This document shows positions 37,249-60,630 of a stretch of 64,000 bases of DNA, one piece after another. Source of the DNA: Escherichia coli. Lineage in GTDB: Bacteria > Pseudomonadota > Gammaproteobacteria > Enterobacterales > Enterobacteriaceae. A model generated the notes under the pieces. The model had not been told where the DNA came from and did no database searches. It saw only the letters and a list, made by a program, of their open reading frames with translations. The stretch is from assembly GCF_036507355.1 (NCBI RefSeq), contig NZ_AP027877.1. The stretch is one strand, 5' to 3'. The stretch's first letter is position 1; each line of letters opens with the position of its first letter. A program made the position numbers and the translations under genes.

Positions 37249-37504
37249 TGGAGCACCTCAAAAACACCATCATACACTAAATCAGTAAGTTGGCAGCATC
37301 ACCCGCATCAGGATGGGAAATAGGGTAAAAAAGTAAGGAACTTCGATACCTCTACTACAGTGAATATTTTGCTGATGATACTTCCCTTTGCCAAATGAAA
37401 TTAACCTCTTTCTCTATTACCGCGTTTTTCCAGAAGCAAGAGATTGGGTATCAAGAGGCTGGCTGCTATGATATGGCGTCTTGTTTTTTAAGCGAGGAAA
37501 GATT

Positions 37505-38260
37505 TTGAGTGCGGGACGCCTGAATAAAAAATCTCTGGGTATCGTGATGTTGTTATCGGTTGGACTGCTTTTGGCGGGCTGTTCGGGTAGCAAATCATCC
37601 GATACAGGAACGTATTCCGGCTCCGTTTACACCGTGAAACGGGGGGATACGCTATATCGTATTTCGCGCACCACGGGAACCAGCGTAAAAGAACTGGCGC
37701 GACTGAACGGCATTTCCCCCCCTTACACTATTGAAGTAGGTCAGAAACTAAAACTGGGTGGGGCGAAAAGTAGCAGTAGTACACGTAAATCAACCGCCAA
37801 ATCAACGACTAAAACCGCATCGGTTACACCGTCATCAGCGGTACCGAAATCTTCCTGGCCGCCAGTAGGGCAACGTTGTTGGTTATGGCCAACGACAGGG
37901 AAAGTTATCATGCCGTATTCGACAGCAGATGGCGGCAATAAAGGGATTGATATCTCAGCTCCACGGGGTACACCTATTTACGCCGCGGGTGCAGGAAAGG
38001 TGGTGTATGTGGGCAACCAGCTGCGTGGCTACGGTAATCTCATCATGATTAAACACAGTGAAGATTACATTACGGCTTACGCCCATAATGACACGATGCT
38101 GGTAAATAATGGGCAAAGCGTGAGGGCTGGGCAAAAAATCGCCACCATGGGGAGCACGGATGCGGCATCTGTTCGCCTGCATTTCCAGATTCGTTACCGT
38201 GCAACGGCAATTGATCCGCTACGTTACTTGCCGCCGCAGGGCAGCAAGCCAAAATGCTGA
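37505..38260 (+). CDS. ygeR: LysM/M23 peptidase-family lipoprotein YgeR
   Basis: 251 aa from a TTG start, with SD gagga 7 nt upstream. Lipobox LLAGC, a LysM domain (YTVKRGDTLYRISR) and an M23 domain. Matches K-12 YgeR. Confidence 0.9.
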   Translation: MSAGRLNKKSLGIVMLLSVGLLLAGCSGSKSSDTGTYSGSVYTVKRGDTLYRISRTTGTSVKELARLNGISPPYTIEVGQKLKLGGAKSSSSTRKSTAKSTTKTASVTPSSAVPKSSWPPVGQRCWLWPTTGKVIMPYSTADGGNKGIDISAPRGTPIYAAGAGKVVYVGNQLRGYGNLIMIKHSEDYITAYAHNDTMLVNNGQSVRAGQKIATMGSTDAASVRLHFQIRYRATAIDPLRYLPPQGSKPKC

Positions 38261-38293
38261 TGGCGAATTAATCAGCAGTCAGCAGCGCGGCAC

Positions 38294-38321
38294 TTGCTAA
38301 GGAGAGCGTAAGGTTTATAAT
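38294..38321 (+). promoter_or_regulatory. Putative sigma70 promoter of glyU
   Basis: TTGCTA-N16-TATAAT, with the -10 element ending 17 nt before the mature tRNA 5' end. Confidence 0.5.
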
Positions 38322-38338
38322 GCCTTACGCATCTCGAA

Positions 38339-38412
38339 GCGGGCGTAGTTCAATGGTAGAACGAGAGCTTCCCAAGCTCTATACGAGGGTTCGATTCCCT
38401 TCGCCCGCTCCA
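38339..38412 (+). tRNA. glyU: tRNA-Gly (anticodon CCC)
   Basis: gcgggcgtagttcaatggtagaacgagagcttCCCaagctctatacgagggttcgattcccttcgcccgctcca. 74 nt, cloverleaf-compatible, CCA encoded. Confidence 0.95.
38390..38412 (+). repeat. attL core (glyU 3' end)
   Basis: 23 bp identical to 42585-42607. Confidence 0.85.
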
Positions 38413-38546
38413 TGACCTTTCTTAAAGTACTCCAACCTACTGAATCCTAAGGGATACGGCTTTAAGCCTTCCGCTAGTTTTACTCACTGTAACCAACACT
38501 GTAACTAAATTTGTTGAAATAGTGAGCAGACTTAAGATCTCAGTAC

Positions 38547-40178
38547 ATGCTCAACTCAAAAACCTATCTTTATCAGCGCAATGGCGTCTTTTATATCCGC
38601 CTCAGGATGAAGTCCACAGATCGCCTGACCGTTTCACATCCTTCCCATAGCCGTTATAAAATAGCGTCAGTATCACTACGGACTAAGGATAGACGTACAG
38701 CTATGGCTTACTCACGGCAAATCAAGGCAGCACTTAGGGCAATCCATGCAGACAGACCCAACGCCTCCTATGAGGAAATGAGGGAACACCTGAGGGACAT
38801 CGCAGAGTGGGAGTTGTCTACAGGTCGTTCAGACCTCTTCGAGCCAGATATGAGAGATCTATACCGTGACCAGTATGGGGAAGTGGGAGAGAATCTTGTC
38901 CATGCTCTGGCAAGCGAGCCACTGACTATTGACCAGCATCGCTATATTAATGAGGCTCTTAATGTACTCAAGGCCTGCATGAAGCGCATTGAAGCGGGAG
39001 ATAGCCAGCCACTTATAGATTATATAGATGGATTTGATGCTGCTGCTGGGGCTAATGGCCAAGCCTCTGCAACTCTATCTGTTAGTGCTCCCCAAAAAAC
39101 AAGCATTACTGAAGGCAAACACTGCGTAACCGTTGCTTCTCTCTTTGAGCAGTACGAGCAGGAAAACGCCCAGAACTGGAAGCCAGCAACATTACGAGAA
39201 AACAAAGCTTCTCATGCTGCGTTAATCGAAGTTTTTGATTATCTGGGCCTCAATGCTGACGCCAATGTGTTAGCTCGTGCGGATATGCTTAGGGTTCGGG
39301 ATATCCTCCAGCAATTGCCGAAGAATCGTAAGCAGCGTTTCAAAGATGTTCCGTTGGTTGACCTGCTAGGTCGTGAGGATAAAACCGATTGTCTGGATAT
39401 TGTTACCATCAATAATAAATATCTCATTAAGATGGCGGCTGTTTTCAAGTGGGCCGTGCGTAATGACCTGATTAAAAAGAATATGACAGAAGGGCTAGAG
39501 CTTAAGGTTCCCCAGCGTAAAGCCTCTGAGGCGCGTAATGCTTTCTCTACGGAGCAGGTAGGACAACTACTGGCTGCCGCCCAAGTTTACTCACAGAGAC
39601 CTTCTGGTAAGCCGTATCATTATTATGTTACCGCCTTGGCTGCTATCACTGGGGCGAGACTCAATGAAATAGCCCAACTACAGGTCAAAGACGTCAGGAC
39701 CACTGAGGCGGGAACCGTTTATATTCATATCAATGAAGACGATAGTAGTCTACCCGGTAAGAGCATCAAGAACGCTCATAGTGACCGCTGTGTGCCTCTG
39801 GTCGATGGGGCCTATGGTTTTATATTGGCTGACTTTATGAGGTTGGTTGAGACCCGTAGAGGCGCTGATGGTGATGACGCTATGGTGTTCGATGGTCTTC
39901 GCCTCATGAAGAACGGTTACGGTGAGCAGGTGAGTAAATGGTTTAATCGGACGTTGTTGCCTAAAGTCCTCGCAGACCGTAGCGGCTTAGCGTTTCACTC
40001 GTTTAGACATACAGTTGCGACCCAGTTAAAACAACATGGGGTCGAGTTGGCGTATGCACAGGCGATCATGGGGCATAGTTCAGGGTCTATTACTTACGAC
40101 CGTTATGCTAAAGAGGTTGAGGTTGATAGACTGGTCAATGTGATGGCTGATGTTTATAAGGAGGTTGTGGCCCCTTAA
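38547..40178 (+). CDS. Tyrosine recombinase / integrase (large, 543 aa)
   Basis: The C-terminal catalytic signature is visible: ..GARLNEIAQL.. (R), HSFRHTVATQL (HxxR), GHSSGSITYDRY (H..Y). The N-terminus YLYQRNGVFYIRLR is typical of integrase N-terminal arm-binding domains. Confidence 0.85.
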   Translation: MLNSKTYLYQRNGVFYIRLRMKSTDRLTVSHPSHSRYKIASVSLRTKDRRTAMAYSRQIKAALRAIHADRPNASYEEMREHLRDIAEWELSTGRSDLFEPDMRDLYRDQYGEVGENLVHALASEPLTIDQHRYINEALNVLKACMKRIEAGDSQPLIDYIDGFDAAAGANGQASATLSVSAPQKTSITEGKHCVTVASLFEQYEQENAQNWKPATLRENKASHAALIEVFDYLGLNADANVLARADMLRVRDILQQLPKNRKQRFKDVPLVDLLGREDKTDCLDIVTINNKYLIKMAAVFKWAVRNDLIKKNMTEGLELKVPQRKASEARNAFSTEQVGQLLAAAQVYSQRPSGKPYHYYVTALAAITGARLNEIAQLQVKDVRTTEAGTVYIHINEDDSSLPGKSIKNAHSDRCVPLVDGAYGFILADFMRLVETRRGADGDDAMVFDGLRLMKNGYGEQVSKWFNRTLLPKVLADRSGLAFHSFRHTVATQLKQHGVELAYAQAIMGHSSGSITYDRYAKEVEVDRLVNVMADVYKEVVAP

Positions 40179-40180
40179 GG

Positions 40181-40219
40181 ATGACCATAGGCGATGACCA
40201 TAGGCGATGACCATAGGCG
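40181..40219 (+). repeat. Tandem 13-bp repeat atgaccataggcg x3 (plus a partial fourth)
   Basis: Three perfect head-to-tail copies begin 3 nt after the integrase stop. Each contains the reverse complement of the CTATGGTC motif that recurs at 40239-40291 and 40821-40848. Confidence 0.9.
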
Positions 40220-40330
40220 ATGACACTTGCTACTATTCCTATGGTCCCCTTTGTGGTCCTATGTGGTCCTGTGTGACCCTTTGTGTGGTCATGTTTTGAC
40301 TCATAGTTTTCACTACTTGTCAAGCATATT

Positions 40331-40353
40331 TAATACGACTCACTATAGGGAGA
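40331..40353 (+). promoter_or_regulatory. Phage T7 RNA polymerase class III promoter consensus, 23/23 match
   Basis: TAATACGACTCACTATAGGGAGA is read directly, with an AT-rich -22..-18 region (atatt). Predicted +1 is the G at 40348. It points toward the cargo genes at 41158 and 41845. The sequence match is certain. Its function in vivo is inference. Confidence 0.85.
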
Positions 40354-40585
40354 AGGGACACAAAAAGTTTTCTCTCTCTGTCTCTCTCTATGATGACACT
40401 TGCTACTACTTCAGGTAGCTTTAACTCTAACCGTAACTTATCGCATCCTTTCAGGGGCGGGATGACCAATTACAGACACCAAGCGTTCTACTTAAAATGA
40501 ATGCTTCCTGTGTGCTCTGGGTCAGTCGATAAGTGAATAGCCTTAGACATCATATTAATTATGGTCTCTAACCCCTACAGGGGCT

Positions 40586-40729
40586 TAACTTTAAGTATTA
40601 ACTTATAGTCTACTTAAAGACACAATTAAAGATTAACTTAAAGTATTAAATTATAGATTAATTAAAGACCAATTAAAGAGTAACTTTAAGTATTAACTTA
40701 TAGTCTACTTAAAGACACAATTAAAGATT
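40586..40729 (+). repeat. Three tandem ~47-bp AT-rich iteron-like repeats
   Basis: The 49-bp string taactttaagtattaacttatagtctacttaaagacacaattaaagatt is identical at 40586-40634 and 40681-40729. A degenerate copy (40635-40680) lies between them. All are rich in TTAAAG submotifs. Confidence 0.85.
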
Positions 40730-40922
40730 GACTCTAAGGGAATACCTTAAGAGGTGATGATATTCATAATAATCAATCACCAAACCTATAGGTCTCCTCA
40801 AGGCATTACCCAGAAGCTAACTGTATGGCCCTGTATGGTCCTGTACGCCATTCTTTAGGATGCCATGTAGTTTCGTATGGCCTGATGCCTAGCGTGGCTC
40901 AGAGACCCTCCCAGTAGTAAAT

Positions 40923-40945
40923 CAATACGACTTACTAATAGGAGA
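40923..40945 (+). promoter_or_regulatory. Degenerate T7-like promoter
   Basis: caatacgacttactaataggaga matches the T7 consensus at 18/23 ungapped, or better if a 1-nt insertion near -3 is allowed. It lies 213 nt upstream of the 41158 ORF. Confidence 0.35.
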
Positions 40946-41157
40946 CACACTCCGAACCACTCACCACGTGTCTCTCAAAGTTCCACCTCTCGCGCTTCAC
41001 CATACAGTAGCTCCGCACAGCTACGACACAATCATTCATTCAATCTCAAAGTCATTCTGTTTGCATCCTGTTGTCCTGCTGGTCTCCCTTCGCTTGGGGA
41101 CTTTGAGTGGGCCAGTAGGGGGCGGTTTAGTGTGCATATTTAAAAGGTAACCAAGCA

Positions 41158-41721
41158 ATGAACAATAAACATAAACATGCAGGTCATATTATCACTATTG
41201 AAGGCCACAGCTTTAAGTCTAATGAGTCTGGCATGTGGAATCTTACAGAAATATGGAAAATCCTCGGATTACCTAACAATAAGCTACCCTCTCAGTGGCG
41301 CGGCAAGGTAACAAAGAGGCTCACCGACATGCAAAAAATGCACGTCGAGAAGATTGGTATTGAAAGCATAACCTACGCAGACAAACAGGCTACCCTCAAG
41401 TATGCAGGATGGGTCTCTGAAGATTTCGAGGACATGGTCTATGCAGCCTTTGAGGCTATCCTTGAGATGCCTGAAGTTGCCACGGTCGTTGCTAATAAGA
41501 TGGTCGAACTTGGCTATCACGCTGAAGCTGAGCTATTGGAACGTCATAAGGACGACTATAGAGAAGCTATGCAGACCCTTAAAAAGATTGGTAAACGTGT
41601 TGACGGCAGGAAGCCTGAGCGCATCTACAAGGCCGTACTTAACGGTAATCTGACGAAATTTCAAGGGTTATCCATGATTTCTCGCAGCAGTGTCTGGTAC
41701 GCCCGAACAGTGAATCTATGA
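41158..41721 (+). CDS. KilA-N-like DNA-binding domain protein (tentative)
   Basis: 187 aa. The N-terminal pattern is ..ITIEGHSFKSNESGMWNLTEIWKILGL..P.QW.. followed by ..TYADKQATLKYAGWVSEDFEDMV.. This resembles the KilA-N/Bro-type fold as I remember it. The C-terminal half is helical and basic. Confidence 0.5.
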   Translation: MNNKHKHAGHIITIEGHSFKSNESGMWNLTEIWKILGLPNNKLPSQWRGKVTKRLTDMQKMHVEKIGIESITYADKQATLKYAGWVSEDFEDMVYAAFEAILEMPEVATVVANKMVELGYHAEAELLERHKDDYREAMQTLKKIGKRVDGRKPERIYKAVLNGNLTKFQGLSMISRSSVWYARTVNL

Positions 41722-41844
41722 TGGCTATCGATCACGATAGATGCCAGCGATCAATTTCAGGTTACCGATCGAAACAAACGATCAGCACGATGGTTGCAAT
41801 CGGATATCATATTGACACTTGTCTGACATCCTGAAGGTATCAAT

Positions 41845-42318
41845 ATGTTTGGGCTTTTTAAGAAAAAGGCAAAAGCGGAAAGGTGTTATGATGTAACACG
41901 CATTCAATACGAGCTGGTTGTAATGTCATCTAAGCTGATAAAAAAACAGACCGATATGTTCAAAGTAATAAAAGGGGAGCGAGAGGAGGCTTTAGGAGAC
42001 CCTTTATTATCAGCAGGGTATATAACGCCATGGGTCATTGGATATTGCACTGGTCTCCTGGATGCAGTGACTCAGACGGAGGCTAACAGGATGGCATTTA
42101 CATCAGAAATGCTTGGGCTTCTTTTTGCTGCAGTTTTCGGTGATGATAAGTCTCTTGAGGCCATGGGAACTTATATAGCCTGTAACGAAGCCTCCTCACC
42201 AGACCATGGATTTCATGTTACGTATGAGCTTTATATGTCTGGTCTAGCGAAAGCGTTTAATGAGGTATGTGAGGATAAACCTGCGATAGGACTTCTGAAC
42301 TATTTAATGCAGGATTGA
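41845..42318 (+). CDS. Hypothetical protein (157 aa), no recognisable family
   Basis: Intact ORF on the same strand as the T7 promoter and the 41158 ORF. It is preceded by a GATC-rich spacer. Confidence 0.55.
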   Translation: MFGLFKKKAKAERCYDVTRIQYELVVMSSKLIKKQTDMFKVIKGEREEALGDPLLSAGYITPWVIGYCTGLLDAVTQTEANRMAFTSEMLGLLFAAVFGDDKSLEAMGTYIACNEASSPDHGFHVTYELYMSGLAKAFNEVCEDKPAIGLLNYLMQD

Positions 42319-42584
42319 AAATTTCCCACAAAAATCTCAGTGCCTATCTAACAGTAATAACCCTGCAACATTCCCCCGTATACCTCCAGAAGTTATCCAG
42401 AAGCCGAAGTAGGTATCCTGTCATGTATTTGAATCATCAAAGTTGTTCGTTCTATTCCTCTTTAGGGAATATTACAGCCCTACAGCCTTGACCAGAGATC
42501 ACTTGATGTGTAACCATAACTGTAACCAAAAGGATTCATCATCCTTTAAGAAACAATTGGTTAGTGAGTGATTGTCTTCGATAC

Positions 42585-42607
42585 TTCGATTCCCTTCGCC
42601 CGCTCCA
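42585..42607 (+). repeat. attR of islet 1, and remnant att junction preceding island 2
   Basis: ttcgattcccttcgcccgctcca, identical to the last 23 nt of glyU. Confidence 0.85.
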
Positions 42608-42771: not shown

Positions 42772-43998
42772 ATGAAGCTGACTGCTCGTCAGGTTGAAAC
42801 TGCGAAACCCAAAGAGAAGCCCTACAAACTGGCCGATGGTGGTGGGCTTTACCTGCTGGTTAATCCCAACGGTAAAAGATACTGGCGTCTCAAATACCGT
42901 TCGTTAGGTAAAGAGAAGCTGCTCGCTATTGGCGTTTATCCCGATGTTTCTTTAGCTGAGGCCCGAAGTAAGCGTGAGGATGCTAAAAGAACATTAGCGG
43001 CTGGCAACGATCCCTCTCTTGAACGAAAAATTGAGAAACTTAGTCGTCAACAAGACGCTGAAAACTCGTTTGAGGCTATCACACGGGAGTGGTATCAGCG
43101 TCGCTATGACCGCTGGTCTGTCTCCTACCGCGAAGAAATGCTGAGAACCTTTGAGAAAGATGTATTTCCTTATATCGGTCACAGGCCAATCAAAGATATC
43201 AAGCCGATGGAGTTGCTTGCAGTTCTTTCAAAGATAGAAGCACGAGGGGCAACAGAGAAAGTCCGCAAGGTTCGTCAGCGTTGTGGAGAGGTCTGGAAGT
43301 ATGCCGTTGTGACTGGGAGGGCCGAGTACAATCCAGCACCTGATCTAGCCAGCGCCGTGAGTCCTCATGAGAAAGAGCACTATGCTTTTTTAACCCAGGA
43401 TGAATTGCCTGAGTTTCTTCGGACTCTGAACGCCTATGCCGGTAGTGTGCTTGTTAAGATTGCGATGCAATTGCTCATTTTAACAGGAGTAAGGCCAGGG
43501 GAGTTGAGGCAAGCGGAGTGGCAGGAGTTTGATTTTGAGAAAAAGGTTTGGAATGTACCAGCGGAACGTATGAAAATGCGCCGCCCTCATCTTGTTCCAT
43601 TATCAAGCCAGGCAATTGACCTGCTTAATCAACTTAAACCCATAACGGGAGCAGGAGCGTTATTATTCCCAGGACGTAATAATCCTAAGAAACCGATGAG
43701 CGATATGGCATTGACTGTGTTGGTCAGGCGTATCGGCTATGCCGGGCGCGTTACAGGGCATGGATTCCGCCACACGATGAGTACCATTTTGCATGAGCAG
43801 GGATTCAACTCGGCCTGGATTGAGTTACAGCTGGCTCACGTCGATAAGAACTCAATTCGTGGGACGTATAACCATGCTCAATATTTGGAAGGTCGGCGGG
43901 AGATGATGCAGTGGTATGGAGATTTCATCGGTCAAGCAGGCAAATCCGGATCATCGCTAGCTTATGCAGCTATTAGCTTGACTGCTGAATTAGAGTGA
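42772..43998 (+). CDS. P4-family tyrosine integrase
   Basis: 408 aa. The N-terminus MKLTARQVETAKPKEKPYKLADGGGLYLLVNPNGKRYWRLKYR is typical of the DUF4102 arm-binding domain. Catalytic residues: GVRPGELRQ (R), HGFRHTMST (HxxR), IRGTYNHAQY (Y). Confidence 0.9.
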   Translation: MKLTARQVETAKPKEKPYKLADGGGLYLLVNPNGKRYWRLKYRSLGKEKLLAIGVYPDVSLAEARSKREDAKRTLAAGNDPSLERKIEKLSRQQDAENSFEAITREWYQRRYDRWSVSYREEMLRTFEKDVFPYIGHRPIKDIKPMELLAVLSKIEARGATEKVRKVRQRCGEVWKYAVVTGRAEYNPAPDLASAVSPHEKEHYAFLTQDELPEFLRTLNAYAGSVLVKIAMQLLILTGVRPGELRQAEWQEFDFEKKVWNVPAERMKMRRPHLVPLSSQAIDLLNQLKPITGAGALLFPGRNNPKKPMSDMALTVLVRRIGYAGRVTGHGFRHTMSTILHEQGFNSAWIELQLAHVDKNSIRGTYNHAQYLEGRREMMQWYGDFIGQAGKSGSSLAYAAISLTAELE

Positions 43999-44039: not shown

Positions 44040-44195
44040 GTGAACCTATTTTTTTGGGAGTTAATACTTTTTGCAATTTTTTTTTTCGTGCCGTTGGATG
44101 TAAAGATCTGTGGGGGTTAGGGAAGAAAATCATGCTATGTTAGTCTTTGAGGAGTGAGTCAAAATGTTATAACTTTTTCAAAGAGGCGTTACATC

Positions 44196-45131
44196 GTGAA
44201 AGTCGTTTTTAATGTTAATGGTAAAAAAGTTCCGCTCAAATCTCTGCAATATATAAGTAAAGCAAATCAACTCGAAGTTATGCGGAATTGGTTTTTTGAG
44301 AATTTTGAAGATCCCGCGAACTCTTGCCCGTATGAATCCCGTGAAGGCGGGTATGCTTACATTTATGGGGGCCCATACGAAGCAAGTGAAGAGTTGCAAG
44401 CGATGTTTGAAGGACACGTGAAATTTGATTATATCCAAGAATTAGTCAATGAATTACAAGAACAGTGCTATGAATGGTCTGGTAATTCAAATAATATTAA
44501 TGATTGGTACGATGAAGACTTGTATGATGCTGTTACATCTTCTGAACATCCTTTTTCTAAGTTCGTTGAAAGCATTGATGGAATAAAATTGCTGTCTAAA
44601 GGCGAATTTAAAGATAAACAAAAAGATCATCTGCTTAGCATCCTATATATTAATGTCATTACAGCCCTGGAAACACTTTATGTTGAGTTATTTATTAACT
44701 CTATAGATAAAAACGACTCATATCTTGCTGACTTTATAGAAAAAGGTAAGACGGAATTTAAGGTAAATAAAGGAATATTGGCTTTGCCATTCAAAGGAGA
44801 AACTATTGAAAACATGAGGGCGCAATTAATTAAGGTAATTAAAGAGCATTTGATTAGTGCAAGTTGGCATAGTACAAACAAAGTTGTAGGACGTTATAAA
44901 GCTACATTTGATATAAAAGTACATAAAGAGTGGCCAATAGATGTGATCGAAATAGCAACTCAAAAGCGTAATCATTTAGTCCATCGTGGCGGGAAAGATA
45001 AAGAAGGTAATTCGGTAGTGATTACTGAACAGGATTTAGAAATGTTGCTGGATCACGCACAATCTCTTGGAGAAAAATTGTTTGATAGCCTTGAGGTGGC
45101 ATTACAGAAAAAAGATGAGAATGAATTTTGA
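44196..45131 (+). CDS. Candidate HEPN-domain (Rx4H) protein; the track ORF begins at 44154
   Basis: GTG at 44196 is preceded by aagagg at good spacing. The C-terminal region contains ..ATQKRNHLVHRGGKD.. (R-N-x-x-x-H), the hallmark HEPN RNase motif. The N-terminal domain is unassigned. Confidence 0.4.
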   Translation: MKVVFNVNGKKVPLKSLQYISKANQLEVMRNWFFENFEDPANSCPYESREGGYAYIYGGPYEASEELQAMFEGHVKFDYIQELVNELQEQCYEWSGNSNNINDWYDEDLYDAVTSSEHPFSKFVESIDGIKLLSKGEFKDKQKDHLLSILYINVITALETLYVELFINSIDKNDSYLADFIEKGKTEFKVNKGILALPFKGETIENMRAQLIKVIKEHLISASWHSTNKVVGRYKATFDIKVHKEWPIDVIEIATQKRNHLVHRGGKDKEGNSVVITEQDLEMLLDHAQSLGEKLFDSLEVALQKKDENEF

Positions 45132-45206
45132 GTCTCGGGGTAGGTTGATAGTGCTACCGATAACGAGCAAGCAAATGATACTCGGCAGGCAGTGCCTGCC
45201 GGAGGA

Positions 45207-46910
45207 TTACTTTTTACTTCCAAATTGAATGCCGAGAAGTTTATTCTCTGCTTTATCGCCACGTAGAGTAAGAACAATTTTTGATTTCAGTTCTAACATT
45301 TCGATTTCAGATAAAGTTGTTTCCATAGCATTAAAGTTTTCAGTGTTTAAAGATGCTATATATTGCTTTCCGCTTCGTTTTAATGACTGATTGACAAATG
45401 AGAACCATCTTGCGCGAACACCTGGATCTATATCAGCAAAAAGACGGTTATCATGCCATAGCATATCCATGGCATGGTTTTCACCACATGTAAATACTAA
45501 CCAGTCAAAGCATAATATCCTAGCATCATTGATCCCATCCGAATCATCACCCTCGATTTGGATGCTTAGATCATAACGAATTTTGTTGTCACCAGTATTA
45601 ACATCCAAAACTATTCCTGCTGGTACCCTTGGGTACATTATTTCTGCGAGCTCAGCAAAAATTTTATCGTATTCTGAAAGAGGATTTGTAGAAGCATAGT
45701 TTACCGCTAATCTGTCTTGTTCAACTTTTCGTTCTCTTAGATTTTGAGCTTTCTGTTGAAGGTTAATAGAAAAATTTAAATAATCATGTAACCTTTCTTT
45801 TTCTTCTTTAAATTCAGCTAGTTGTCTAGCTATGACTGCGTATTCATCAAATGCTTTCTTGCCTTGCAGGGATTCCAAATATGAATCACGTAATGCTGAA
45901 ATATCCTTAATGTCAATTTTAAGAGATTCAATTTCTAACAAAAGTTTTACTTTATCATTTTCAAGTCTTTTCTTTCTGTTAAAAGATAATGATTTGTGAA
46001 AATTTTCAACTGACTCAAAATGGGCCAATGTTTCTGGCTTGAAAATCTCTTGTAAGCCATTGTACAGTTCAAGAAGCTCTTCTCTTGAAATGTCAGGGTG
46101 TTCTAATAAAGTTTTTTCTATATTATTTACTTTAAATTCAGCTATATTTTTGTTTTTTTCAACTTCTCGTAATTTTATAGTTAAACTGTTTGTTTCATTC
46201 TCAATAGCTCTGTATTGCTCGTGAACTTGAAATGCATTCAGTTCATCCTGCAGTCTTGGGATCTCTCTTTCTAGCCACTCATAGCGTACTTTAGGTTGAG
46301 AGCCTGCTCTAAACATGTCTTTTAGAATATCATCGTCTTGCCAATTTTTTAGCGATTGACTTACTTTATCCAGCTCTTGCTTATTATTTCTTTTAGATAA
46401 TATTAAATTATGATCTATACCGAGAAGAAATGCGGTACGAAGCAATGCTTCAAAGTCTTGCTCCTTTTTTGTCCTAGTTGGACTGATGCAGTCATCTCTG
46501 GTATATCGCGAAAAACGCTTAAATAAAGATCTGAATGATAAATACGGAATGTTATTCTCAAGATTAAATATTCCTATTTTATCTAATAAATCTTTAAATG
46601 CTTTTAAAGATATTGTTTTGTCATTTAATAATAATTTTTTTCCATTGCCCGTTCTAGATATTAAGTACTCAACTCCATTATGAGAAAAAAGTAAAGAGAA
46701 CCACCAATCTGGAACTGCTGAAGTTAATTTTTTATCAGCATTAGCTCCTAAACAATGTTGAATGAGACCGAGAATAAGTGTCTTACCGACTCCGTTACTA
46801 CTGCCTTCTTTTTCTTTAGAGCTATCACCAATGATCAACGTTAGTCCTGTATCATTGAAATGCACTGGATGAAAAGTTGGCTGATCGCAAGTTAAGCGAA
46901 TTAACTTCAT
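45207..46910 (-). CDS. SMC/ABC-type ATPase with coiled-coil insert (LmuB / ABC-3C ATPase-like, DUF2326-like)
   Basis: 567 aa. Walker A is SSNGVGKT. There is a long K/E-rich coiled-coil middle, and the C-terminal block is ..DDSDGINDARILCFDWL... Its start codon abuts the stop of the upstream small ORF (taaATG). Confidence 0.6.
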   Translation of the reverse strand: MKLIRLTCDQPTFHPVHFNDTGLTLIIGDSSKEKEGSSNGVGKTLILGLIQHCLGANADKKLTSAVPDWWFSLLFSHNGVEYLISRTGNGKKLLLNDKTISLKAFKDLLDKIGIFNLENNIPYLSFRSLFKRFSRYTRDDCISPTRTKKEQDFEALLRTAFLLGIDHNLILSKRNNKQELDKVSQSLKNWQDDDILKDMFRAGSQPKVRYEWLEREIPRLQDELNAFQVHEQYRAIENETNSLTIKLREVEKNKNIAEFKVNNIEKTLLEHPDISREELLELYNGLQEIFKPETLAHFESVENFHKSLSFNRKKRLENDKVKLLLEIESLKIDIKDISALRDSYLESLQGKKAFDEYAVIARQLAEFKEEKERLHDYLNFSINLQQKAQNLRERKVEQDRLAVNYASTNPLSEYDKIFAELAEIMYPRVPAGIVLDVNTGDNKIRYDLSIQIEGDDSDGINDARILCFDWLVFTCGENHAMDMLWHDNRLFADIDPGVRARWFSFVNQSLKRSGKQYIASLNTENFNAMETTLSEIEMLELKSKIVLTLRGDKAENKLLGIQFGSKK

Positions 46911-47216
46911 TTAACTTTCCTTATTTTTTAATTTGTCATAATTGCAACAGATTGGCATTATTCTGTTTTCATTATCTAGCGTTATTTGTTTGATGCAAAA
47001 AAGAATGTCTACGGCAAGTATAAATTGTGTAAAAGAGGGCGTGATTATCGTTGATTTATTTTTCCGCTCTATTTTTGTCCATAGTTCTTCTATGGATACC
47101 GGTCCATCAATTAACGAACGGATGTATCCTGCAATCGCAATTAGGGAGTTACTAAACCTAACATGCTTATGTGGCAGAAGCATTGCTTGGATGTTCATAA
47201 GCATCACATGTCTCAA
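46911..47216 (-). CDS. Small middle-component-like protein (LmuC / ABC-3C MC-like); possibly the 3' part of a frameshifted ~148-codon gene
   Basis: 101-aa ORF with a TTG start, translationally coupled to the ATPase. A 62-aa ORF in another frame (47167..47355) fills the gap back to the upstream gene. Confidence 0.4.
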   Translation of the reverse strand: MRHVMLMNIQAMLLPHKHVRFSNSLIAIAGYIRSLIDGPVSIEELWTKIERKNKSTIITPSFTQFILAVDILFCIKQITLDNENRIMPICCNYDKLKNKES

Positions 47217-47390
47217 AATATTTAGCTAAAATTAACTCTGCAGCAAATCGATAACTCGCGACCGCACTTGTGGGAACTTGCGGGGGAAGGAGTTTATCTA
47301 TCATCCAAGTATATCTTAAATCTGCATAATTGTGGTTATCTTCAGTTATCGCCAATTTACTTTTTGCATAAGTATCTCTAACTTCTTGAG

Positions 47391-48173
47391 CTATAGTTTG
47401 TTCAAGACCACAAGACCATTATCAACAGAATCTAAAAATTCATTTATCAAATATAGTTGATAGCTAAAAGATTCCAGCCTGCTTTTTATTGGTTTTGTAA
47501 TACCATTTATTTTTATTTTATCTTCGAAGTCCGGGGCTGTTTCACTTAAAAAATTCATGGGTGAAGAAGATTTTTGTGCTAAAAAAGTCAATACTTCACC
47601 AACAGCTCGAGTATCTGTAAAGTCTAAATTAACCTCAGGAATGAAACCTACAATATCTTGCTTTTCACCCTCGGATAATGACATAAACTTTTGAAGGAGC
47701 TCCATCCCACCCATTGCACCTGCGTGATTAAGACTTTTACTGATTGCAAGTGTATTTAATGAAAGTCCAACAGGTGCTGGAATACCCTTGAAATAATCAT
47801 TCATTACAAAAGTATATTTTGATACTTTCCCCCATTTGGCGACTAATTTATCAAAGTCGCCAATCGATTTATTAACAGCTTCTAGCTCTTTGGTTTGATT
47901 TGAAGGTTTAGGTCCATAAACTTGGAAGTAATGAGCCTCATGAGCAATCCACCCATCATTCCCGCCATCTCCCCAGTTTCCCCAAGGGGAAACAGCTTGA
48001 AAGCCAGGAGTCGCGTATTGCATAACCTTCGAAAAAAGCGCCTGAAAACTGTCTCCCATACATTCATGTACTTTTAACCGAAAGAACTGTCTGTAGAGGT
48101 AATCTTGCTGTGTCGAACTCATTTTCCTCTCATCCATGATGAACACTTTTGATGATAATATCCTCTCATTCAT
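47391..48173 (-). CDS. Putative effector of the three-gene system, with an N-terminal Mrr-like PD-(D/E)xK motif (LmuA-like); start may be M18
   Basis: 260 aa. The GNWGDGGNDGWI motif resembles the GDGGIDG motif of the Mrr catalytic domain. The C-terminal half is helical. It is the first gene of the operon. Confidence 0.4.
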   Translation of the reverse strand: MNERILSSKVFIMDERKMSSTQQDYLYRQFFRLKVHECMGDSFQALFSKVMQYATPGFQAVSPWGNWGDGGNDGWIAHEAHYFQVYGPKPSNQTKELEAVNKSIGDFDKLVAKWGKVSKYTFVMNDYFKGIPAPVGLSLNTLAISKSLNHAGAMGGMELLQKFMSLSEGEKQDIVGFIPEVNLDFTDTRAVGEVLTFLAQKSSSPMNFLSETAPDFEDKIKINGITKPIKSRLESFSYQLYLINEFLDSVDNGLVVLNKL

Positions 48174-48282
48174 TGTTGTAAACCTATGATTAGCAAAATT
48201 GGAGATGCTTTCACTTTAGAGTTGGTATCTAAAGGTTATAAATTATCAAAACAGGTTGTATAGATATCAAATTGAATACGAT

Positions 48283-53332: not shown

Positions 53333-53629
53333 TTAGCCTGCCATTTTTGCCAGCAGAGCCGCACCCACTGGTTCTTCGTTCTGCAGTGGCGTTAATGCAA
53401 TACGCTTTGCAAACTGCTCTGCAACGTCATTTATCAGCGGCAGTTCGCGACTGGCTCGGGTTACCAGGAACGGTGAGGACGGTTTCGCAGCAGCCAGACT
53501 GCTATTGATTACCCATGCCCATGGTTCAATTTCAGCCCGACGCAAATCCTGTTGCAGGTTTGCCGCTTCCAGCACCGGTGTCGTTTCGGCAAGCGTCACG
53601 ATAATCACCTTCGTCTTCTCCGGGTCATC
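53333..53629 (-). pseudogene. arsA: 3' fragment of a second, divergent arsA
   Basis: ..DDPEKTKVIIVTLAETTPVLEAANLQQDLRRAEIEPWAWVINSSL.. aligns by eye to the last ~98 aa of the intact ArsA ([45 protein letters not shown]..). Confidence 0.75.
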
Positions 53630-54034
53630 GGCCAGAGACTGCTGGGGACGCCGGTTAAGGTCGGATTCTTCAATCAACCACCGCTCATCTTCAGGTAATG
53701 CCTGCAATGTTTCAGGCAGGCAAATATCCAGCGTTGAGATTGCATCAGTGGATGGATCAGTTAATGGGGCATCATCTTCCAGATCAACGAATTCCCTGGT
53801 GGTGCGGTACTCATCAATCAGCAGATTCCTCGCCGCCCGATACAGCCAGGCTCGCGGATTCTCCATTTCGCAGAAACTGTCTGAATGAGCGCGGGCACGC
53901 AGGAATAGCTCTTGTAGAAGGTCTGCTGCTTTTTCGCTATCACCTGTCTTCTATGTCAGAAAGCGAGAGAGTTCGGCTTCATGTTGCTGCCAGAACACGC
54001 TCATGCAGTTGTTGAATGCCGTTACATCACTCAT
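53630..54034 (-). pseudogene. ECF-type sigma factor gene remnant, with an internal TAG and the 3' end fused in frame to the arsA fragment
   Basis: ATG at 54034: MSDVTAFNNCMSVFWQQHEAELSRFLT*. Reading resumes as ..DLLQELFLRARAHSDSFCEMENPRAWLYRAARNLLIDEYR.. (sigma70 region 2 style), then ..LQALPEDERWLIE.. (start of region 4). Confidence 0.5.
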
Positions 54035-54042
54035 ACCAGCCC

Positions 54043-54586
54043 TCAAATTTTGCTCTGATTAACCCGCCGTGAAAGTTCTTCTGCAGATTCTTTTCGTTCG
54101 CTGTAGCGATCAACGAGATAGGCTGAGTTACCTCGGGTCAGCAGAGTAAATTTCACCAGTTCTTCCATCACATCCACGATTCGGTCGTAATAAGACGACG
54201 GTTTCATTCGTCCATCTTCATCAAATTCCTGCCAGGCTTTTGCCACAGAGGACTGATTCGGGATGGTGATCATCCGCATCCAGCGGCCAAGAATTCGCAT
54301 CTGGTTTACGGCATTGAAAGACTGAGAGCCACCGCAGACCTGCATAACGGCCAGTGTCTTACCCTGCGAAGGGCGAACAGCGCCTTCTGATAACGGTATC
54401 CAATCAATCTGGGCTTTCATGATGCCGGTCATCGCACCATGGCGTTCAGGGGAACACCACACCATCCCTTCGGACCAACGAACCAGCTCGCGCAGTTCCA
54501 TGACTTTAGGATGTGAGTCAGGCGCATCATCAGGAAGAGGCAAGCCTGAGGGATTGAAGATCCGAACCTCTTCGCCCATGGCTGCA
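54043..54586 (-). pseudogene. arsH: arsH (NADPH-dependent FMN reductase), 5'-truncated by the IS
   Basis: ..[62 protein letters not shown].. matches ArsH from about residue 60 onward. The reading frame runs straight into the IS inverted repeat at 54587. Confidence 0.8.
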
Positions 54587-54604
54587 TGAATCGCCACGGA
54601 TAAT

Positions 54605-55417
54605 CTAGACACTTCCGAGCCGTTGATAATACTGGTTTTCATATTCTGTCGGTGACATCTGATCGCTGGAACCATGCCGACGCTTACTGTTATAAAACAT
54701 TTCGATGTAATCAAAAATATCGCTGCGGGCTTCTTCCCGCGTTCCGTAGATCTTTTTCTTTATCCGTTCGCGTTTCAACAACTGGAAAAAGCTTTCTGCA
54801 ACCGCATTATCATGGCAGTTACCGCGACGGCTCATGCTGCCCTCCAGGCCGTGTGATTTCAGGAACGACTGCCACTCATGGCTTGTGTACTGACTGCCCT
54901 GATCCGAATGAACCAGCACCTGTTTTTGGGGATTACGGCGCCATACAGCCATCAGCAGTGCGTTCAGGACAATGTCCTTTGTCATCCGGGATTGCATGGA
55001 CCAGCCGATAATTTTGCGTGAGAACAGATCAACAACCACGGCAAGATACAGCCAGCCTTCGTGGGTCCTGATGTAGGTTATGTCCGTTACCCAACGCTTA
55101 TCCGGAGCATCCGGATTGAACTGTCGCTGGAGCCTGTTGGGCGACACGATACTGGCCTCGCCTTTACGTGCCCGCGGGCTCCGGTATCCGACCTGAGCCT
55201 TTATCCCGACACGTTTCATCAGTCGCCAGACTCTGTTCACTCCGCACTGTTGCCCGCTGTCCCGCAGATCCAGATGGATTTTGCGATAACCATAGACGCA
55301 TCCCGATTCCAGCCAGAACTGTTTAATCTGCCCTGTCAGCCTCAGGTCTGCCTGATGGCGTTGTGAATGCGGCTGCTGAAGCCAGGCGTAAAAACCACTG
55401 GGATGAACATCCAGCAC
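54605..55417 (-). CDS. IS3-family OrfB (DDE transposase core; expressed as an OrfAB fusion)
   Basis: 270-aa frame with DDE-type blocks ([29 protein letters not shown]). Confidence 0.9.
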
Positions 55418-55812: not shown

Positions 55813-56790
55813 TCACTCTAATGCTTTTTGAGCAGCAAGTTCAAGTTCACTTTTTCCATGAAGTGCCAAAGACATATGGCATTCCGCTAGAAGGCAATAA
55901 CATTCTGTTTTTAGCGTCTGTATATCACTTTTATTTTGTAATCCATCAAATATAGTCATGGCCCTGTAAATGCTTTCAGGGGTGAACTCGTAAAGTTCTT
56001 TCTTTCCGGCTAACATTTCATCTGATAAATAATGATTCTTATATCCTTGGTCCTGCTTAGCTAATCTTACAGATCGTTCTGGTTTATGTACCGTTTGAAG
56101 GATATTATCTATAATAAATTGTGATGTATTATGTAGTTCATCAACAGGGAGATGATTACTGGCGATGAGGAAAAGGTTTTTAGCGTCGATCAACTCAATG
56201 TATAAAGTGTTCACTGCATTATTCTGGTTTATTCTTCCTGTAACGAAATAATCTGGCTTGAATCTGCTCAAGAATGAATTTTGAGATATGTGGTCATTAC
56301 AAAAATTTGTCGCAGCCATCGGATAGGTATAGAGACCATCGATTTTTTTATTTGAAATGATTTGTACTAATTCCTGATTAAGTATTAATGGATCCAGTGT
56401 ATTCAATGAAGTGGTGAAAGGGAATATAGCTATGGAATAGTCTGAAGTATTATCTTCATTAATTTTAGTTTTGAAAACCTGCCCGCTGAAACGATAACCT
56501 TTCCGGTAGATTGTTTCTATGCAGCGATCATAGCCAATTTTTTCAAAAATGCAGCGCAAAGAATAGATACATCTTGTCAGGGACTCGTCACTAACAATAA
56601 TATTTTTCCATACTGATTCGATGATCATATCTTTCAGTACAACATGACCAGCGGATTCAAGTAATACTATTAATACACCTAACTCTTTCGGTGGAATATA
56701 AACTTGCTCATTTCCTTGAGTAAGAATTCCATCTTCCGTGAGCGTTAATCCCTCAAGAAAATGATATGAGAATTTATTTTCTAAGTCCAT
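55813..56790 (-). pseudogene. ygeH: ETT2 HilA-like regulator YgeH, 3'-truncated by the IS (325 of ~458 codons)
   Basis: [25 protein letters not shown].. with an OmpR/ToxR-type winged helix. The ORF's stop codon TGA (55813-55815) is supplied by the IS terminus. Confidence 0.85.
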
Positions 56791-57123
56791 TAGTTAACCT
56801 CTATGAAAAAATTGGTTTCTTGCATCCTGCATAAGCAATAGAAATTATGGCTATTCATATTTATATGTCATTAACGCTACAGGAGTTTACATTCGACATA
56901 TCTATGGTTGTGTTCACTAATTTATCTTAGGAATTCAGTGATGTAATCTGAAATAGCCTTATTCAATTTTGATAAAGTAAAATGCTCTCTAAAGCATTGA
57001 AAAATAATGATTTATTGTATGCTCTTAACTGTTTTAAGATGCTGATTTAAGAAAAGATAAGAGGTGCTGGTTATAGTGGTTAATGCACTATAACCAGCAA
57101 TTTTAACCAAATGATTGTAATGC

Positions 57124-57615
57124 TTAGTTATTATCTTCTGAATTATCGGTTAAGAGTTCGACATATGCCTGCGCTTTACTCTTAACACTATCATCCTCAC
57201 AATTGTTAATAATATGAAAGAAACATTGCATTGCGTTATCGATATTTTTAGCCCCAATTTGACATTGACCCATACGATAAATAACTGAATAGTCATCATA
57301 TGGCGAGTAATTATAACTTAGCTTGTAAAGGTCATATGCTTGTTGATATTTCTTTTTTGACTGACATACTGATGCAAAACCTTTTAGATATTCATGATTT
57401 TCGAACGCATAAATGCACAATAATTTATAATAAATTTCTGCCTCCGTTATATTACCCTTTTCATGGTAGTCGAATGCATATGCATATATTCTATCAAGGA
57501 TATCAGGAGTCAAACCATGTAGTAATGCCAGATTTTCTCCTTTCGATAATGCGTGTTTTAGTTGATTTGCCCATTCATCACTATTATTGAATATTTCAAT
57601 TGTTTCTGTGTCCAT
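57124..57615 (-). CDS. ygeG: ETT2 class II T3SS chaperone (TPR, SicA/LcrH-like)
   Basis: 163 aa, matches K-12 YgeG. Confidence 0.9.
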   Translation of the reverse strand: MDTETIEIFNNSDEWANQLKHALSKGENLALLHGLTPDILDRIYAYAFDYHEKGNITEAEIYYKLLCIYAFENHEYLKGFASVCQSKKKYQQAYDLYKLSYNYSPYDDYSVIYRMGQCQIGAKNIDNAMQCFFHIINNCEDDSVKSKAQAYVELLTDNSEDNN

Positions 57616-57861
57616 AATATTCCTCTGTGATGTGTCTCGTGATGCTAAATTATTATTGATTGACTCATTAATATTTCTACATTTATCTTTTTTAAATTAT
57701 GAGTTTTAAGCTTGCATTGCTTATGAGTATATTTCTTCATTATTAGTAAAATTACTGTCCACTACAAACTAATTACATTATTAGTTATTTTGATAATATT
57801 CACCTTATTAGTAATCTTAATTACGACATTCCATAAATGCCTTAATGTGCATGACCATGAT

Positions 57862-58266
57862 TCATATTATCAATTTCCATTTTTCGATCAAAATTAAAAA
57901 GGGGATTTTTGCGAAGGGGCGAATGTCGTTTGTTTTTTTTTCTTTATTATGTCTGGTGATGAGGGGGGATAGAACGTCGGTGCATATAGTAGAGAATTTA
58001 TCCAGGTCTAAATTATTCTCTATTTTGGTCAGTTTTATGAGTTCATTTGTAGCCATACTCATTAAATCATCTGTTATCGGAAATTTATATATGCTCATAG
58101 CAGATAATATTGCTTGCTGAATTATTTCTTCAGAAAAATCCGCTATCTTTATTGACAAATCATGTATTTGATATTTTCCTCCAAGAGATTCTTGTTCAAT
58201 ATAATTTAAACCAGACCTCATAGTAATTTTAACTGGATTAACGAATTTTTCTTCATTTTTCTTCAT
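57862..58266 (-). CDS. ygeF: ETT2-associated small protein, ygeF-like
   Basis: 134-aa ORF at the position of K-12 ygeF, in very AT-rich DNA. Confidence 0.55.
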   Translation of the reverse strand: MKKNEEKFVNPVKITMRSGLNYIEQESLGGKYQIHDLSIKIADFSEEIIQQAILSAMSIYKFPITDDLMSMATNELIKLTKIENNLDLDKFSTICTDVLSPLITRHNKEKKTNDIRPFAKIPFLILIEKWKLII

Positions 58267-58771
58267 TTTTCTTATTTTTGTTCTCCTGATCAGGAACTAA
58301 TGGTTGCAGTGGTAGGCTATTATTAATATTTCGTGGCTTCATTTTACATTTCTCTCATTTGATTAGAGCAAAATCCGAACTCGCAGCTTCTGATAATGTC
58401 AAATATCACCTTTTCTCATACTTTATTCTATCAAAAATCGCTCATTTTTACTTTTTTTACCATAATGTTACTTTGTAGCATCGGCAATTTACATAACTTA
58501 CACGTTGTTTTTTATATCCTGAAAAAACAGATAGATAGTGTGCGCACTCGAAATGATATTGGTAACATAAATAGCTTTATTCGTGATAAACATCTCAAAA
58601 GATTTCCTTTATTATATTCGAAATTCATTTGATCAAGGTTATCACCTTATGGAGACGTTACGTAGAATGACTATATTTGTTATCGGCACATTAGGGGTAT
58701 TAATTTTAGTATTGATGGAAGGTGATTATTGAACAGTAACATCGAGTCACGGTAAAAATGTGAGGTATATA

Positions 58772-59197
58772 ATGGATATTGAGTTTTCGCAGATTCATGA
58801 AATGGTCTATATGCATGATATTGTAAATTCGGACTCGAAAAAGAAACCAAGGATTCCGTTAAAAAAATTCCTTAATGCTGAGAAGGTTCTCACGCAAACA
58901 ACATCATGGGCATTAAATTCAAGATATGTGAATGTTAATTCTGTTAATAATGCCAACGTAAAGAGTAAAGTTAAAAACAGTTATATCTCACGATCTGTCA
59001 ATGATGAGTTTAGTTTAACAGATGATGAAATCAATTCTTTTAAAGAAACGTTAGTCCTTTCCTCTATTGATTCACTGAGTAAACTGGTTCTTAATAATCC
59101 TCTTTCTGTATTGTTTACTTCGACTGTACGAAGGAATAATAATCGAGCTAAGATGAATGTAGAGTTCGACTCATGGATTTGCACCAGATGTTGTTGA
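58772..59197 (+). CDS. yqeK: Uncharacterised protein YqeK
   Basis: 141 aa from [16 protein letters not shown]... Position and orientation are as in K-12. Confidence 0.7.
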
Positions 59198-59345
59198 TAC
59201 ATGATATTTTACATTGCAAGGGGATGTCTGAAATGAAAGATGTTGATCAAAACTTTGATGCTTTAGACTGCCATATACTGCAAGCATATTTAATTTTATT
59301 GTTTTATGATTAACGAGGTTCCATCTTTTTGTTATCTATTTTAGT

Positions 59346-59840
59346 TTACCTTGCACAATGCATTATTGCTCTGTTACCAATACTCAAAATAAAAGCATGC
59401 TTACCTTGCTTTAGTATATTATAGCTTACACTTTTTTCTGGAAAGACATAAAAATCAGGAATAAGTTCTGCAAGTCTATCATCATCGACTTGATCCATAA
59501 TCTCAAACTTATTAACTTTCTTTGATGTTAAATGGGCTGTGTCATAGTTTTCAACCCATGTGTATTCAATATTTCGCCGTATTGATTTACTTTCTCTGTT
59601 ACCTTGTTGCCAGGTTCCACTCAACGCAACAGTTCCTGTTTTATTTTTTTGGTTATACATAAAGTCGATAGTAAGATTTGCTCGCCCCTGGTCATTAAAA
59701 ATTACCCAATTTGCAGTGCATGTCTCATTATATATCATTTTTTCTGCAGTGTAAGAATAGACAGTGAAGAGAATAAACCCACTGATAAAAACTAAAATAA
59801 ATAATAAGTTTTTTTTATAATCAATCACGATTAACCTCAC
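59346..59840 (-). CDS. yqeJ: Uncharacterised membrane-anchored protein YqeJ
   Basis: 164-aa ORF with an N-terminal TM segment. Overlaps the yqeI 3' end by 20 nt. Confidence 0.8.
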   Translation of the reverse strand: MRLIVIDYKKNLLFILVFISGFILFTVYSYTAEKMIYNETCTANWVIFNDQGRANLTIDFMYNQKNKTGTVALSGTWQQGNRESKSIRRNIEYTWVENYDTAHLTSKKVNKFEIMDQVDDDRLAELIPDFYVFPEKSVSYNILKQGKHAFILSIGNRAIMHCAR

Positions 59841-60630
59841 GGTAAGACAGGGTTAAACAGCCTGCCACTTCATGTTGGTTATAGTTTTTATTGCATGCCA
59901 TAACAATCATCCCCGGTGAGGATTTTGCAAGAGGGAAGTATAACCACGGATATTTTTTACAGTTAATCCCCGAATCCAATATCCGTGTTTTATATTTATC
60001 GAACTCTTTCAACCCATCAATTGTATCTTCTGTTACATTAAAATGGCAGCCATTAATTTCCGCAACAATCTTGTAATCCTTGAAAAATGGCTTCGGTTGA
60101 TTATTATTCCATAGCCAATATGCAAAATATGCGCCTATGACAAATGCGCTCAACATAATTAGATGACTTTTTATATGTTTGAGGATTTTGTTATTGAAAT
60201 TCTTTGCGCCACCAATGCTCTCTTTGTATCCCGCATTAACTTTTATGGCCGGTGGGGTATTGTGTGTATGTGCGTCTGTTGACGAGTTTATTACATGATT
60301 TTGTATGTTAATGTCATTATGGATCTTGAATCCTCTTCTCGGCACGGTTGCAATAAGTGAGTGGGTAGTATCACCAACAGCGCGAAATCCGCGTCTGATA
60401 ATGGATATGTTCTGATATAACGTGTTAGTTGGCACACGCATACCTTCTTCTTCCCAGACTCTGGTGAAAAAATCTTGTTGTGCAACCACATCAGGAAAAG
60501 CTTCAAGTAGAAGGGATAAACAACGACTGGCTGGCGTTGTCAGAACGACGTTAAGATCGGCGTTATGTACCGATATTAATTTTCGGTGCTCAGGCCAGAA
60601 CTCGATATTATCGTTAATAATCCAGTACAT
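59821..60630 (-). CDS. yqeI: ToxR/CadC-like membrane-anchored transcriptional regulator
   Basis: 269 aa with an N-terminal winged-helix domain (..RVPTNTLYQNISIIRRGF..) and one TM segment. Matches K-12 YqeI. Confidence 0.9.
   Translation of the reverse strand: MYWIINDNIEFWPEHRKLISVHNADLNVVLTTPASRCLSLLLEAFPDVVAQQDFFTRVWEEEGMRVPTNTLYQNISIIRRGFRAVGDTTHSLIATVPRRGFKIHNDINIQNHVINSSTDAHTHNTPPAIKVNAGYKESIGGAKNFNNKILKHIKSHLIMLSAFVIGAYFAYWLWNNNQPKPFFKDYKIVAEINGCHFNVTEDTIDGLKEFDKYKTRILDSGINCKKYPWLYFPLAKSSPGMIVMACNKNYNQHEVAGCLTLSYREVNRD

Follow-up and report, generated by a model that had tools for sequence, protein, structure and literature searches.

The subject of this analysis is a set of three minus-strand genes at 45207..48173 of a 64,000-nucleotide window (the whole stretch of DNA that was analysed) from Escherichia coli contig NZ_AP027877.1. 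A preliminary description, made from the letters of the window, had presented these genes as a Lamassu-like operon of the ABC-three-component (ABC-3C) type, consisting of a nuclease-like effector, a small middle protein and a coiled-coil ABC ATPase. The listing of open reading frames (ORFs) does place three minus-strand ORFs where that description had put them, at 47391..48173, 46911..47216 and 45207..46910. In the direction of transcription the locus is now read as follows.

48242..48270, minus strand: candidate promoter-like site 5′ of the effector gene, within the spacer between this gene and the divergent arsR (10/12 match in a consensus scan).
47391..48122, minus strand: effector ORF in truncated form, 243 aa when read from the conserved start (260 aa from the ATG at 48173), with the GDGGNDGW-bearing head and the first half of the C-terminal domain (CTD) CTD10.
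47403..47418, minus strand: frameshifting 8-bp tandem duplication TGGTCTTG/TGGTCTTG in the effector gene (alignment to loci L001 and L002; single copy in eight related loci).
47167..47402, minus strand: out-of-frame remainder of the effector gene, encoding the C-terminal half of CTD10 with the invariant KYFETCDAYEHP motif (alignment, 62-aa ORF).
46911..47183, minus strand: middle component MC6, 90 aa from the PGAP start (Pfam MC6, E = 3.2e-16, 59.5 bits).
45207..46910, minus strand: intact 567-aa ABC ATPase of the DUF2326/YydD type, Rad50/SMC/LmuB-like, with a short coiled-coil insert.
45183..45201, minus strand: G+C-rich, terminator-like hairpin immediately 3′ of the ATPase stop, with an 8-pair stem (7 G-C pairs) and then a T-rich tail.

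The motifs that had been picked out by eye are all present. GDGGNDG occupies residues 68-74 of the 260-aa ORF (numbered from the ATG at 48173) and is followed by YFQVYG, without an (E/Q)xK after it, while the ATPase has the Walker A motif GSSNGVGKT, a long coiled coil (model helices from approximately 152 to 425) and a C-terminal ABC block, in which SDGIN spans 457-461 and LWHDN 484-488. The TAA of the middle gene (46913..46911) immediately precedes the ATG of the ATPase gene (46910..46908), forming the taaATG junction. The conserved start of the effector across genera, as judged by comparison of orthologues, is the ATG at 48122, corresponding to M18 in the 260-aa ORF. For the middle gene PGAP uses the ATG at 47183, with alternative starts at 47198, 47204 and 47216 (the last a TTG, giving 101 aa), and this exact protein sequence is already annotated as middle component 6 in the protein collection. 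The assignment of the promoter is tentative because the consensus scan found no more promoter-like sites in the region than shuffled sequence would be expected to yield.

The 260-aa protein of the preliminary description exists as an ORF, but it is a frameshift fragment of a conserved 315-aa gene, so the operon is not intact. In orthologous records the intact effector gene has 948 nt for 315 aa and shares 17 nt with the middle gene. Comparison with eight near-identical enterobacterial loci gives the window 8 extra bp, an exact tandem duplication of TGGTCTTG at 47403..47418, which is single-copy in all of the related enterobacterial loci examined (8/8). The shifted frame runs into a stop at 47393..47391, and a 62-aa ORF at 47167..47355, whose sequence is exactly that of the C-terminal end of intact P0242, is left behind out of frame. 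The 72 residues lost from the end of the protein are the most conserved half of CTD10 and include the family-invariant Y266, R284, W287, A309, F317, E318, C320, D321, Y323 and P326 as well as the KYFETCDAYEHP motif. Since the remainder of the gene is identical to that of its closest intact relative, L001, the duplication looks recent. In the protein collection the truncated 243-aa product (WP_338388096.1) is found on a single E. coli contig, within a cluster of 364 members. Furthermore, translation of the effector now ends approximately 200 nt before the middle gene and the normal overlap between effector stop and MC6 start is gone; any coupling through that overlap is therefore lost.

Profile searches place the locus in a family. 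The ABC-3C systems, reportedly described by Krishnan et al. in 2020, are said to comprise the Pfam families MC1-8 and CTD1-14. The middle protein matches MC6 (PF20293) with 59.5 bits, where the cut-off is 27.2, and the ATPase matches DUF2326 at 102.9 bits, above the curated cut-off. CTD10 scores 15.1 bits against a cut-off of 28.1 in the ORF of the window, covering profile positions 2-63 of 134, and 38.4 bits over positions 2-134 in the intact orthologue P0242; the ancestral gene has the C-terminal domain of an ABC-3C effector and the present ORF does not. The names given by RefSeq to the orthologous genes, as ABC-three component system proteins, agree with these matches, and the ABC-3C identity proposed in the preliminary description is upheld by both. 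The combination of MC6, a DUF2326/YydD ATPase and CTD10 makes this an ABC-3C module and hence a member of the Lamassu superfamily, inside which the ABC-3C systems have been placed (PMC10586767). From PADLOC, the ATPase matches PDC-M68B almost from end to end (E = 7.7e-73, 244 bits, residues 3-563 of 567), and PDC-M68A gives a weak match (E = 0.0023) to the CTD of the intact orthologue and none in the effector ORF of the window. NCBIfam yielded no useful family and no housekeeping equivalog, its sole match being TrlF at E = 0.007, far below the cut-off.

The same three genes recur well beyond E. coli. By megablast the segment is found in 6 of 5426 complete E. coli genomes at 95-99.7% identity, and an identical ATPase occurs in 386 index blocks of the collection and on 181 contigs. 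Effector homologues of approximately 315 aa, each of them with CTD10, and ATPase homologues of approximately 567 aa, often named YydD/DUF2326, are widespread in Proteobacteria. The order of the three genes and their overlapping or abutting frames are kept on a conjugative element of Halomonas, on the chromosome of Geobacter metallireducens and on an island of Pectobacterium, each with different neighbours, and because the trio persists in such distant taxa while its surroundings change we define the module as these three genes. In one of the six complete E. coli genomes (L012, NZ_LR890349, 1508..4277) IS903B lies within the ATPase gene, and in another one of the six (L013, NZ_CM176349, 3475..5647) ISSen4 lies within the effector gene. 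Among other members of the effector cluster, P0243, P0248 and P0250 have different frameshifted ends; with P0247 they form a group of variously frameshifted or N-terminally replaced alleles, two of which break at a C5 run encoding LLPP. These disruptions are independent of each other, so decay of the module is common, and such recurrent decay would fit a fitness cost or neutral loss alike.

The 8-bp duplication could itself be an artefact of assembly or sequencing, or the truncated protein could still work, in which case the module would be functional in this strain; the truncated allele is indeed on one contig only, the genes for MC6 and the ATPase are both undamaged, and the latter retains an AAGGA ribosome-binding site of its own. 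Base-calling errors do not typically take the form of an exact 8-bp tandem duplication outside a homopolymer, however, and the truncation removes ten family-invariant residues from Y266 to P326 and leaves CTD10 below its cut-off, while other strains have lost the module independently through IS903B, ISSen4 and further frameshifts. We give a functional module in this strain a slim chance. The copy in the window is most likely a recently inactivated remnant whose effector is a pseudogene.

The ATPase is predicted to be LmuB-like in both fold and size. Its model has a predicted local distance difference test (pLDDT) score of 82.8 and consists of N- and C-terminal half-heads with the helices of residues 152-425 between them. 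The highest fold-match scores are those of LmuB from Vibrio cholerae (9uxl_A, 22.6), Rad50 (9q9h_A, 22.2), SMC5 (21.5) and LmuB from Salmonella (9hqu_A, 21.4). The motifs invariant in the family are GxxxxGKT, the signature SDGIN, and LWHDN, in which the Walker B aspartate is followed by Asn instead of Glu. Near residues 270-297 the coiled coil is interrupted, and this break is highly conserved in the family, with P272, D273, L279, L282, Y283, G285 and F290 invariant; by analogy we read it as a putative docking apex. A protein of this general build might also be a housekeeping Rad50/SbcC/RecN-type factor for DNA repair or chromosome maintenance with unrelated neighbours, and the preliminary description had named SMC, RecN and RecF as the proteins with which its ATPase should not group. 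RecN and RecF score 14.0 and 13.8, far lower than LmuB, and no housekeeping equivalog was returned by NCBIfam. There is no Mre11/SbcD partner, the gene belongs to a low-GC mobile island that only 6 of 5426 complete E. coli genomes carry, and it is always linked with MC6 and a CTD10 protein. We rejected a housekeeping role on these grounds of island context, constant linkage and low RecN/RecF scores, and consider its likelihood close to nil.

For the effector the model (pLDDT 83.8) has an alpha/beta head, from residue 18 to approximately 175, and a seven-helix C-terminal domain. Among its fold matches are N.BspD6I (9.3), FokI (8.7), AF1548 (8.6) and LmuA (7.2 and 6.7), and the head is predicted to have a restriction-endonuclease core fold. 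Invariant in 41 orthologues are G68, D69, G70, G71, N72, D73, G74 and W75 of the GDGGNDGW stretch, and further along the head Y82, Q84, G87, K102, D106, N125 and D126. On the strands of the model D73 takes the “PD” position and Q84-x-Y86, on strand 3, the “(D/E/Q)xK” position, so that Y86 stands in the place of the catalytic lysine; the 41 orthologues, like 25 distant relatives, have Tyr, Phe or His there, and a D...(D/E/Q)xK motif is not found. Since the canonical lysine is replaced throughout the family, we infer nuclease activity rather than read it from the motif. The effector ORF matches no Pfam nuclease family even at E<=10, and no Pfam family covers the head.

A profile of the head retrieved 1392 proteins from 1.84 billion representatives, most of them ABC-3C effectors of approximately 310 aa. 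NACHT STAND NTPases (P0370, P0356) begin with the same head, as do TPR proteins of approximately 1270 aa, some with a PIN domain (PIN-TPR-GreABC; P0399, P0412); P0373, P0417 and P0430 are further proteins grouped with this NACHT/TPR set. QxY/F is retained in all of the head-bearing architectures compared. Such a distribution suggests that the head is a recurrent module of conflict systems, placed in the effector position and with a non-canonical active site, for which nuclease activity is plausible. The opposing explanation is that the fold was kept and the lysine lost, leaving a DNA-binding or sensor module, or a domain of other chemistry, so that the toxic output differs. It draws on the Tyr, Phe or His found at the lysine position in every family member examined, on the Gln that replaces the acidic residue of the first helix in this clade, and on the separate PIN nuclease domain of some larger head-bearing proteins. 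On the other hand, the head stands in the N-terminal effector position of three conflict architectures (ABC-3C, NACHT STAND NTPases and TPR-PIN), and the invariant GDxxNDG loop with Q84, K102, D106, N125 and D126 would fit an active site whose lysine has migrated onto the following helix, as is known to have happened in other PD-(D/E)xK enzymes. We therefore regard a head that is not a nuclease as unlikely, if still a serious contender, and retain a plausible nuclease as the preferred reading.

The module lies on a mobile island. Its GC content is 33-37% against approximately 50% in the flanks. A tRNA-Gly(CCC) gene stands at 38339..38412, and its 3′ end is repeated 4.2 kb downstream at 42583..42607 with 19/19 core bases identical; these repeated att sequences from the tRNA end indicate that two islands have integrated in tandem at tRNA-Gly(CCC). 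Encoded on the first island (38413..42607) are a 543-aa integrase and a KilA-N-like protein. The second runs from a P4-type integrase (42772..43998) through a HEPN-like gene, the ABC-3C module, arsRDABC and a GNAT gene to ars remnants and an IS3-family transposase. A third repeat of the tRNA end, which would mark the right end of the second island, is not present within the window, which holds two copies.

The HEPN-like gene (44154..45131, plus strand; PGAP start at approximately 44196; 311-325 aa) is convergent with the module, between the integrase and ATPase genes. Its match to HEPN_RES_NTD1 (5e-5, 24.1 bits) stays under the threshold of 27.4 bits, and an RNHLVH (Rx4H) motif lies close to its C-terminus; it may be a standalone defence or toxin gene of the HEPN type. 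As a fourth component of the module it was rejected, as it is not beside the module in Halomonas, Geobacter or Pectobacterium; it is separate cargo, which accompanies the enterobacterial island and not the module in distant taxa. In Pectobacterium versatile (L011, CP173610, 6814..9206) genes of 370 and 426 aa, neither with a Pfam match, lie between the module and the island integrase, and the slot taken by this pair and by the HEPN-like gene in E. coli may be a variable position for defence cargo. To the right, 53333..55417 holds leftovers of a second ars cluster, namely a C-terminal fragment of ArsA and an ArsH-like FMN reductase overlapped by an IS3-family transposase ORF (54605..55417); this stretch probably represents the right part of the island in scrambled form. 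Beyond it a low-GC block (55813..63285, 31-36% GC) encodes two Trans_reg_C regulators, a TPR_3 chaperone-like protein, a LuxR-type protein and an amino-acid permease, and presumably resembles the ETT2 (yge/yqe) remnant beside glyU in E. coli.

We propose a mechanism for the intact module by analogy with the solved Lamassu complexes, which belong to a different lineage. A dimer of the Rad50/LmuB-like ATPase, together with MC6, would hold one effector monomer inactive through the helical CTD10. The complex would sense aberrant phage or plasmid DNA, such as DNA ends or replication intermediates, and slow ATP turnover (the Walker B motif here is DN, not DE) would then free the effector. Once freed, the effector would oligomerise via its CTD and the restriction-endonuclease-fold head would damage DNA, leading to the death of the infected cell and thereby aborting the infection. 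In Lamassu the LmuA CTD and LmuC are located on the apex of the LmuB coiled coil, where the CTD docks LmuA, and mutants in a patch of this CTD are defence-negative (bioRxiv 10.1101/2025.04.02.646746). Lamassu senses DNA ends, the released LmuA is active as a tetramer held mainly via the CTDs, and short Lamassu LmuB has a Walker B of the form hhhhD[Q/S/T/E] and hydrolyses ATP slowly (10.1101/2025.04.02.646746). All three genes are required and the defence is abortive (10.1101/2022.05.11.491447). Because the Lamassu CTD both docks the effector and drives the activating tetramerisation, the copy in the window is probably dead; its truncated effector should neither dock nor oligomerise.

In addition to the replaced lysine, several points weigh against this interpretation. 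The PADLOC LmuB profile is marginal on the ATPase (E = 1.5e-4, 18.5 bits, and over residues 38-98 of the P-loop region only), LmuA is marginal on the effector head (E = 0.005), and the middle protein has no PADLOC match at E<=10, LmuC included. Against all PDB chains a profile of 25 ATPase family members retrieves no solved LmuB chain. The DNA-sensing trigger, the stoichiometry and the release step would be carried over from another Lamassu lineage, and the loss of function through truncation is likewise something that we infer. Finally, in the searchable literature we found no experiment on this lineage and no functional study of DUF2326, PDC-M68, yydD or yydB. Searches of all PDB chains with the single ATPase sequence, the MC6 sequence and a 41-member effector profile also returned nothing meaningful; only the predicted folds relate the proteins to LmuB and LmuA. 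The preliminary description had tied its assignment to profile matches with LmuA/B/C or ABC-3C families and had called the operon Lamassu-like: the ABC-3C families do match and the effector and ATPase models do resemble LmuA and LmuB, whereas the LmuA and LmuB profiles are marginal and LmuC is silent. The canonical LmuA/B/C profiles barely detect the CTD10/MC6/DUF2326 lineage.

With these points weighed, we hold it to be highly probable that the locus is an ABC-3C (Lamassu-superfamily) module of the CTD10/MC6/DUF2326(YydD) lineage, carried as low-GC cargo of an integrase-bearing arsenic-resistance island at tRNA-Gly(CCC), presumably working in its intact form by the mechanism proposed here and most likely inactivated in this strain. 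The locus is already known, as a catalogued and RefSeq-annotated ABC-3C candidate anti-phage module, and is an ordinary and probably inactive example. This strain should not be scored as having a working Lamassu/ABC-3C system, and tools that operate at the level of ORFs or hidden Markov models can miss or miscall a pseudogene effector of this kind. The lineage is common on enterobacterial islands, and an intact orthologous operon, such as that at 37479..40383 of NZ_OZ197100, would be a sensible choice for asking whether sequestration and release extend to this lineage and whether a restriction-endonuclease head that lacks the lysine cleaves DNA. It is a distinctly unlikely reading that the lysine-less head may represent a so far uncharacterised type of effector domain, acting through a non-canonical active site or by an activity other than that of a nuclease, and that, separately, the recurrent and independent knock-outs in Enterobacteriaceae may reflect a real cost of autoimmunity rather than neutral decay.

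Among known systems the nearest in layout is Lamassu type II, for which LmuA-LmuC-LmuB, DdmABC of Vibrio cholerae and Lamassu-Mrr of E. coli SE15 served as comparators. The order is the same, with an effector bearing a helical CTD, a small middle protein (MC6 of approximately 90 aa in the window) and an SMC/Rad50-like ATPase of approximately 560-650 aa whose coiled coil is short; the window ATPase finds its best structural match in LmuB, LmuA is among the matches of the effector model, and the solved LmuA chains themselves carry ABC-3C C-terminal-domain labels. Walker B is non-canonical in both, hhhhD[Q/S/T/E] in short Lamassu and hhhhDN here. The ATPase families differ, being DUF2326/YydD in the window, DUF3732 in the matched solved LmuB chains and AAA_23 in lactococcal Lamassu, and the latter has PF20276 and PF20289 where the module has CTD10 and MC6. 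LmuA needs its catalytic lysine K57, for which the window effector head has no equivalent, and while Lamassu provides abortive defence, no defence phenotype is reported for the CTD10/MC6/DUF2326 lineage in the searchable literature. In the Mrr/FokI-type PD-(D/E)xK domains, too, the (D/E/Q)xK lysine is present where the effector family has Tyr, Phe or His. With PDC-M68, a computational candidate system that is not validated, the ATPase matches component B end to end and component A is matched weakly and by the CTD only, so that the head domain differs. Of the Pfam ABC-3C systems the module is a direct member, with no difference at the level of families, although its CTD10 gene is frameshifted here. 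Finally, YydB-YydC-YydD of Bacillus subtilis includes the namesake of DUF2326, YydD, and JGI gives this name to many of the ATPase homologues. The top Foldseek match of the effector model is chain B of 9a6c, an integrative crosslinking mass spectrometry model of YydD-YydB (probability 0.99), a longer protein (481 aa) of which 165 columns align. Its head we take to be a metallophosphoesterase and not a restriction-endonuclease fold, and the region common to the effector and YydB is, by our own reading rather than as a result, C-terminal. The YydD-YydB model indicates that binding between a DUF2326 ATPase and its effector does occur.

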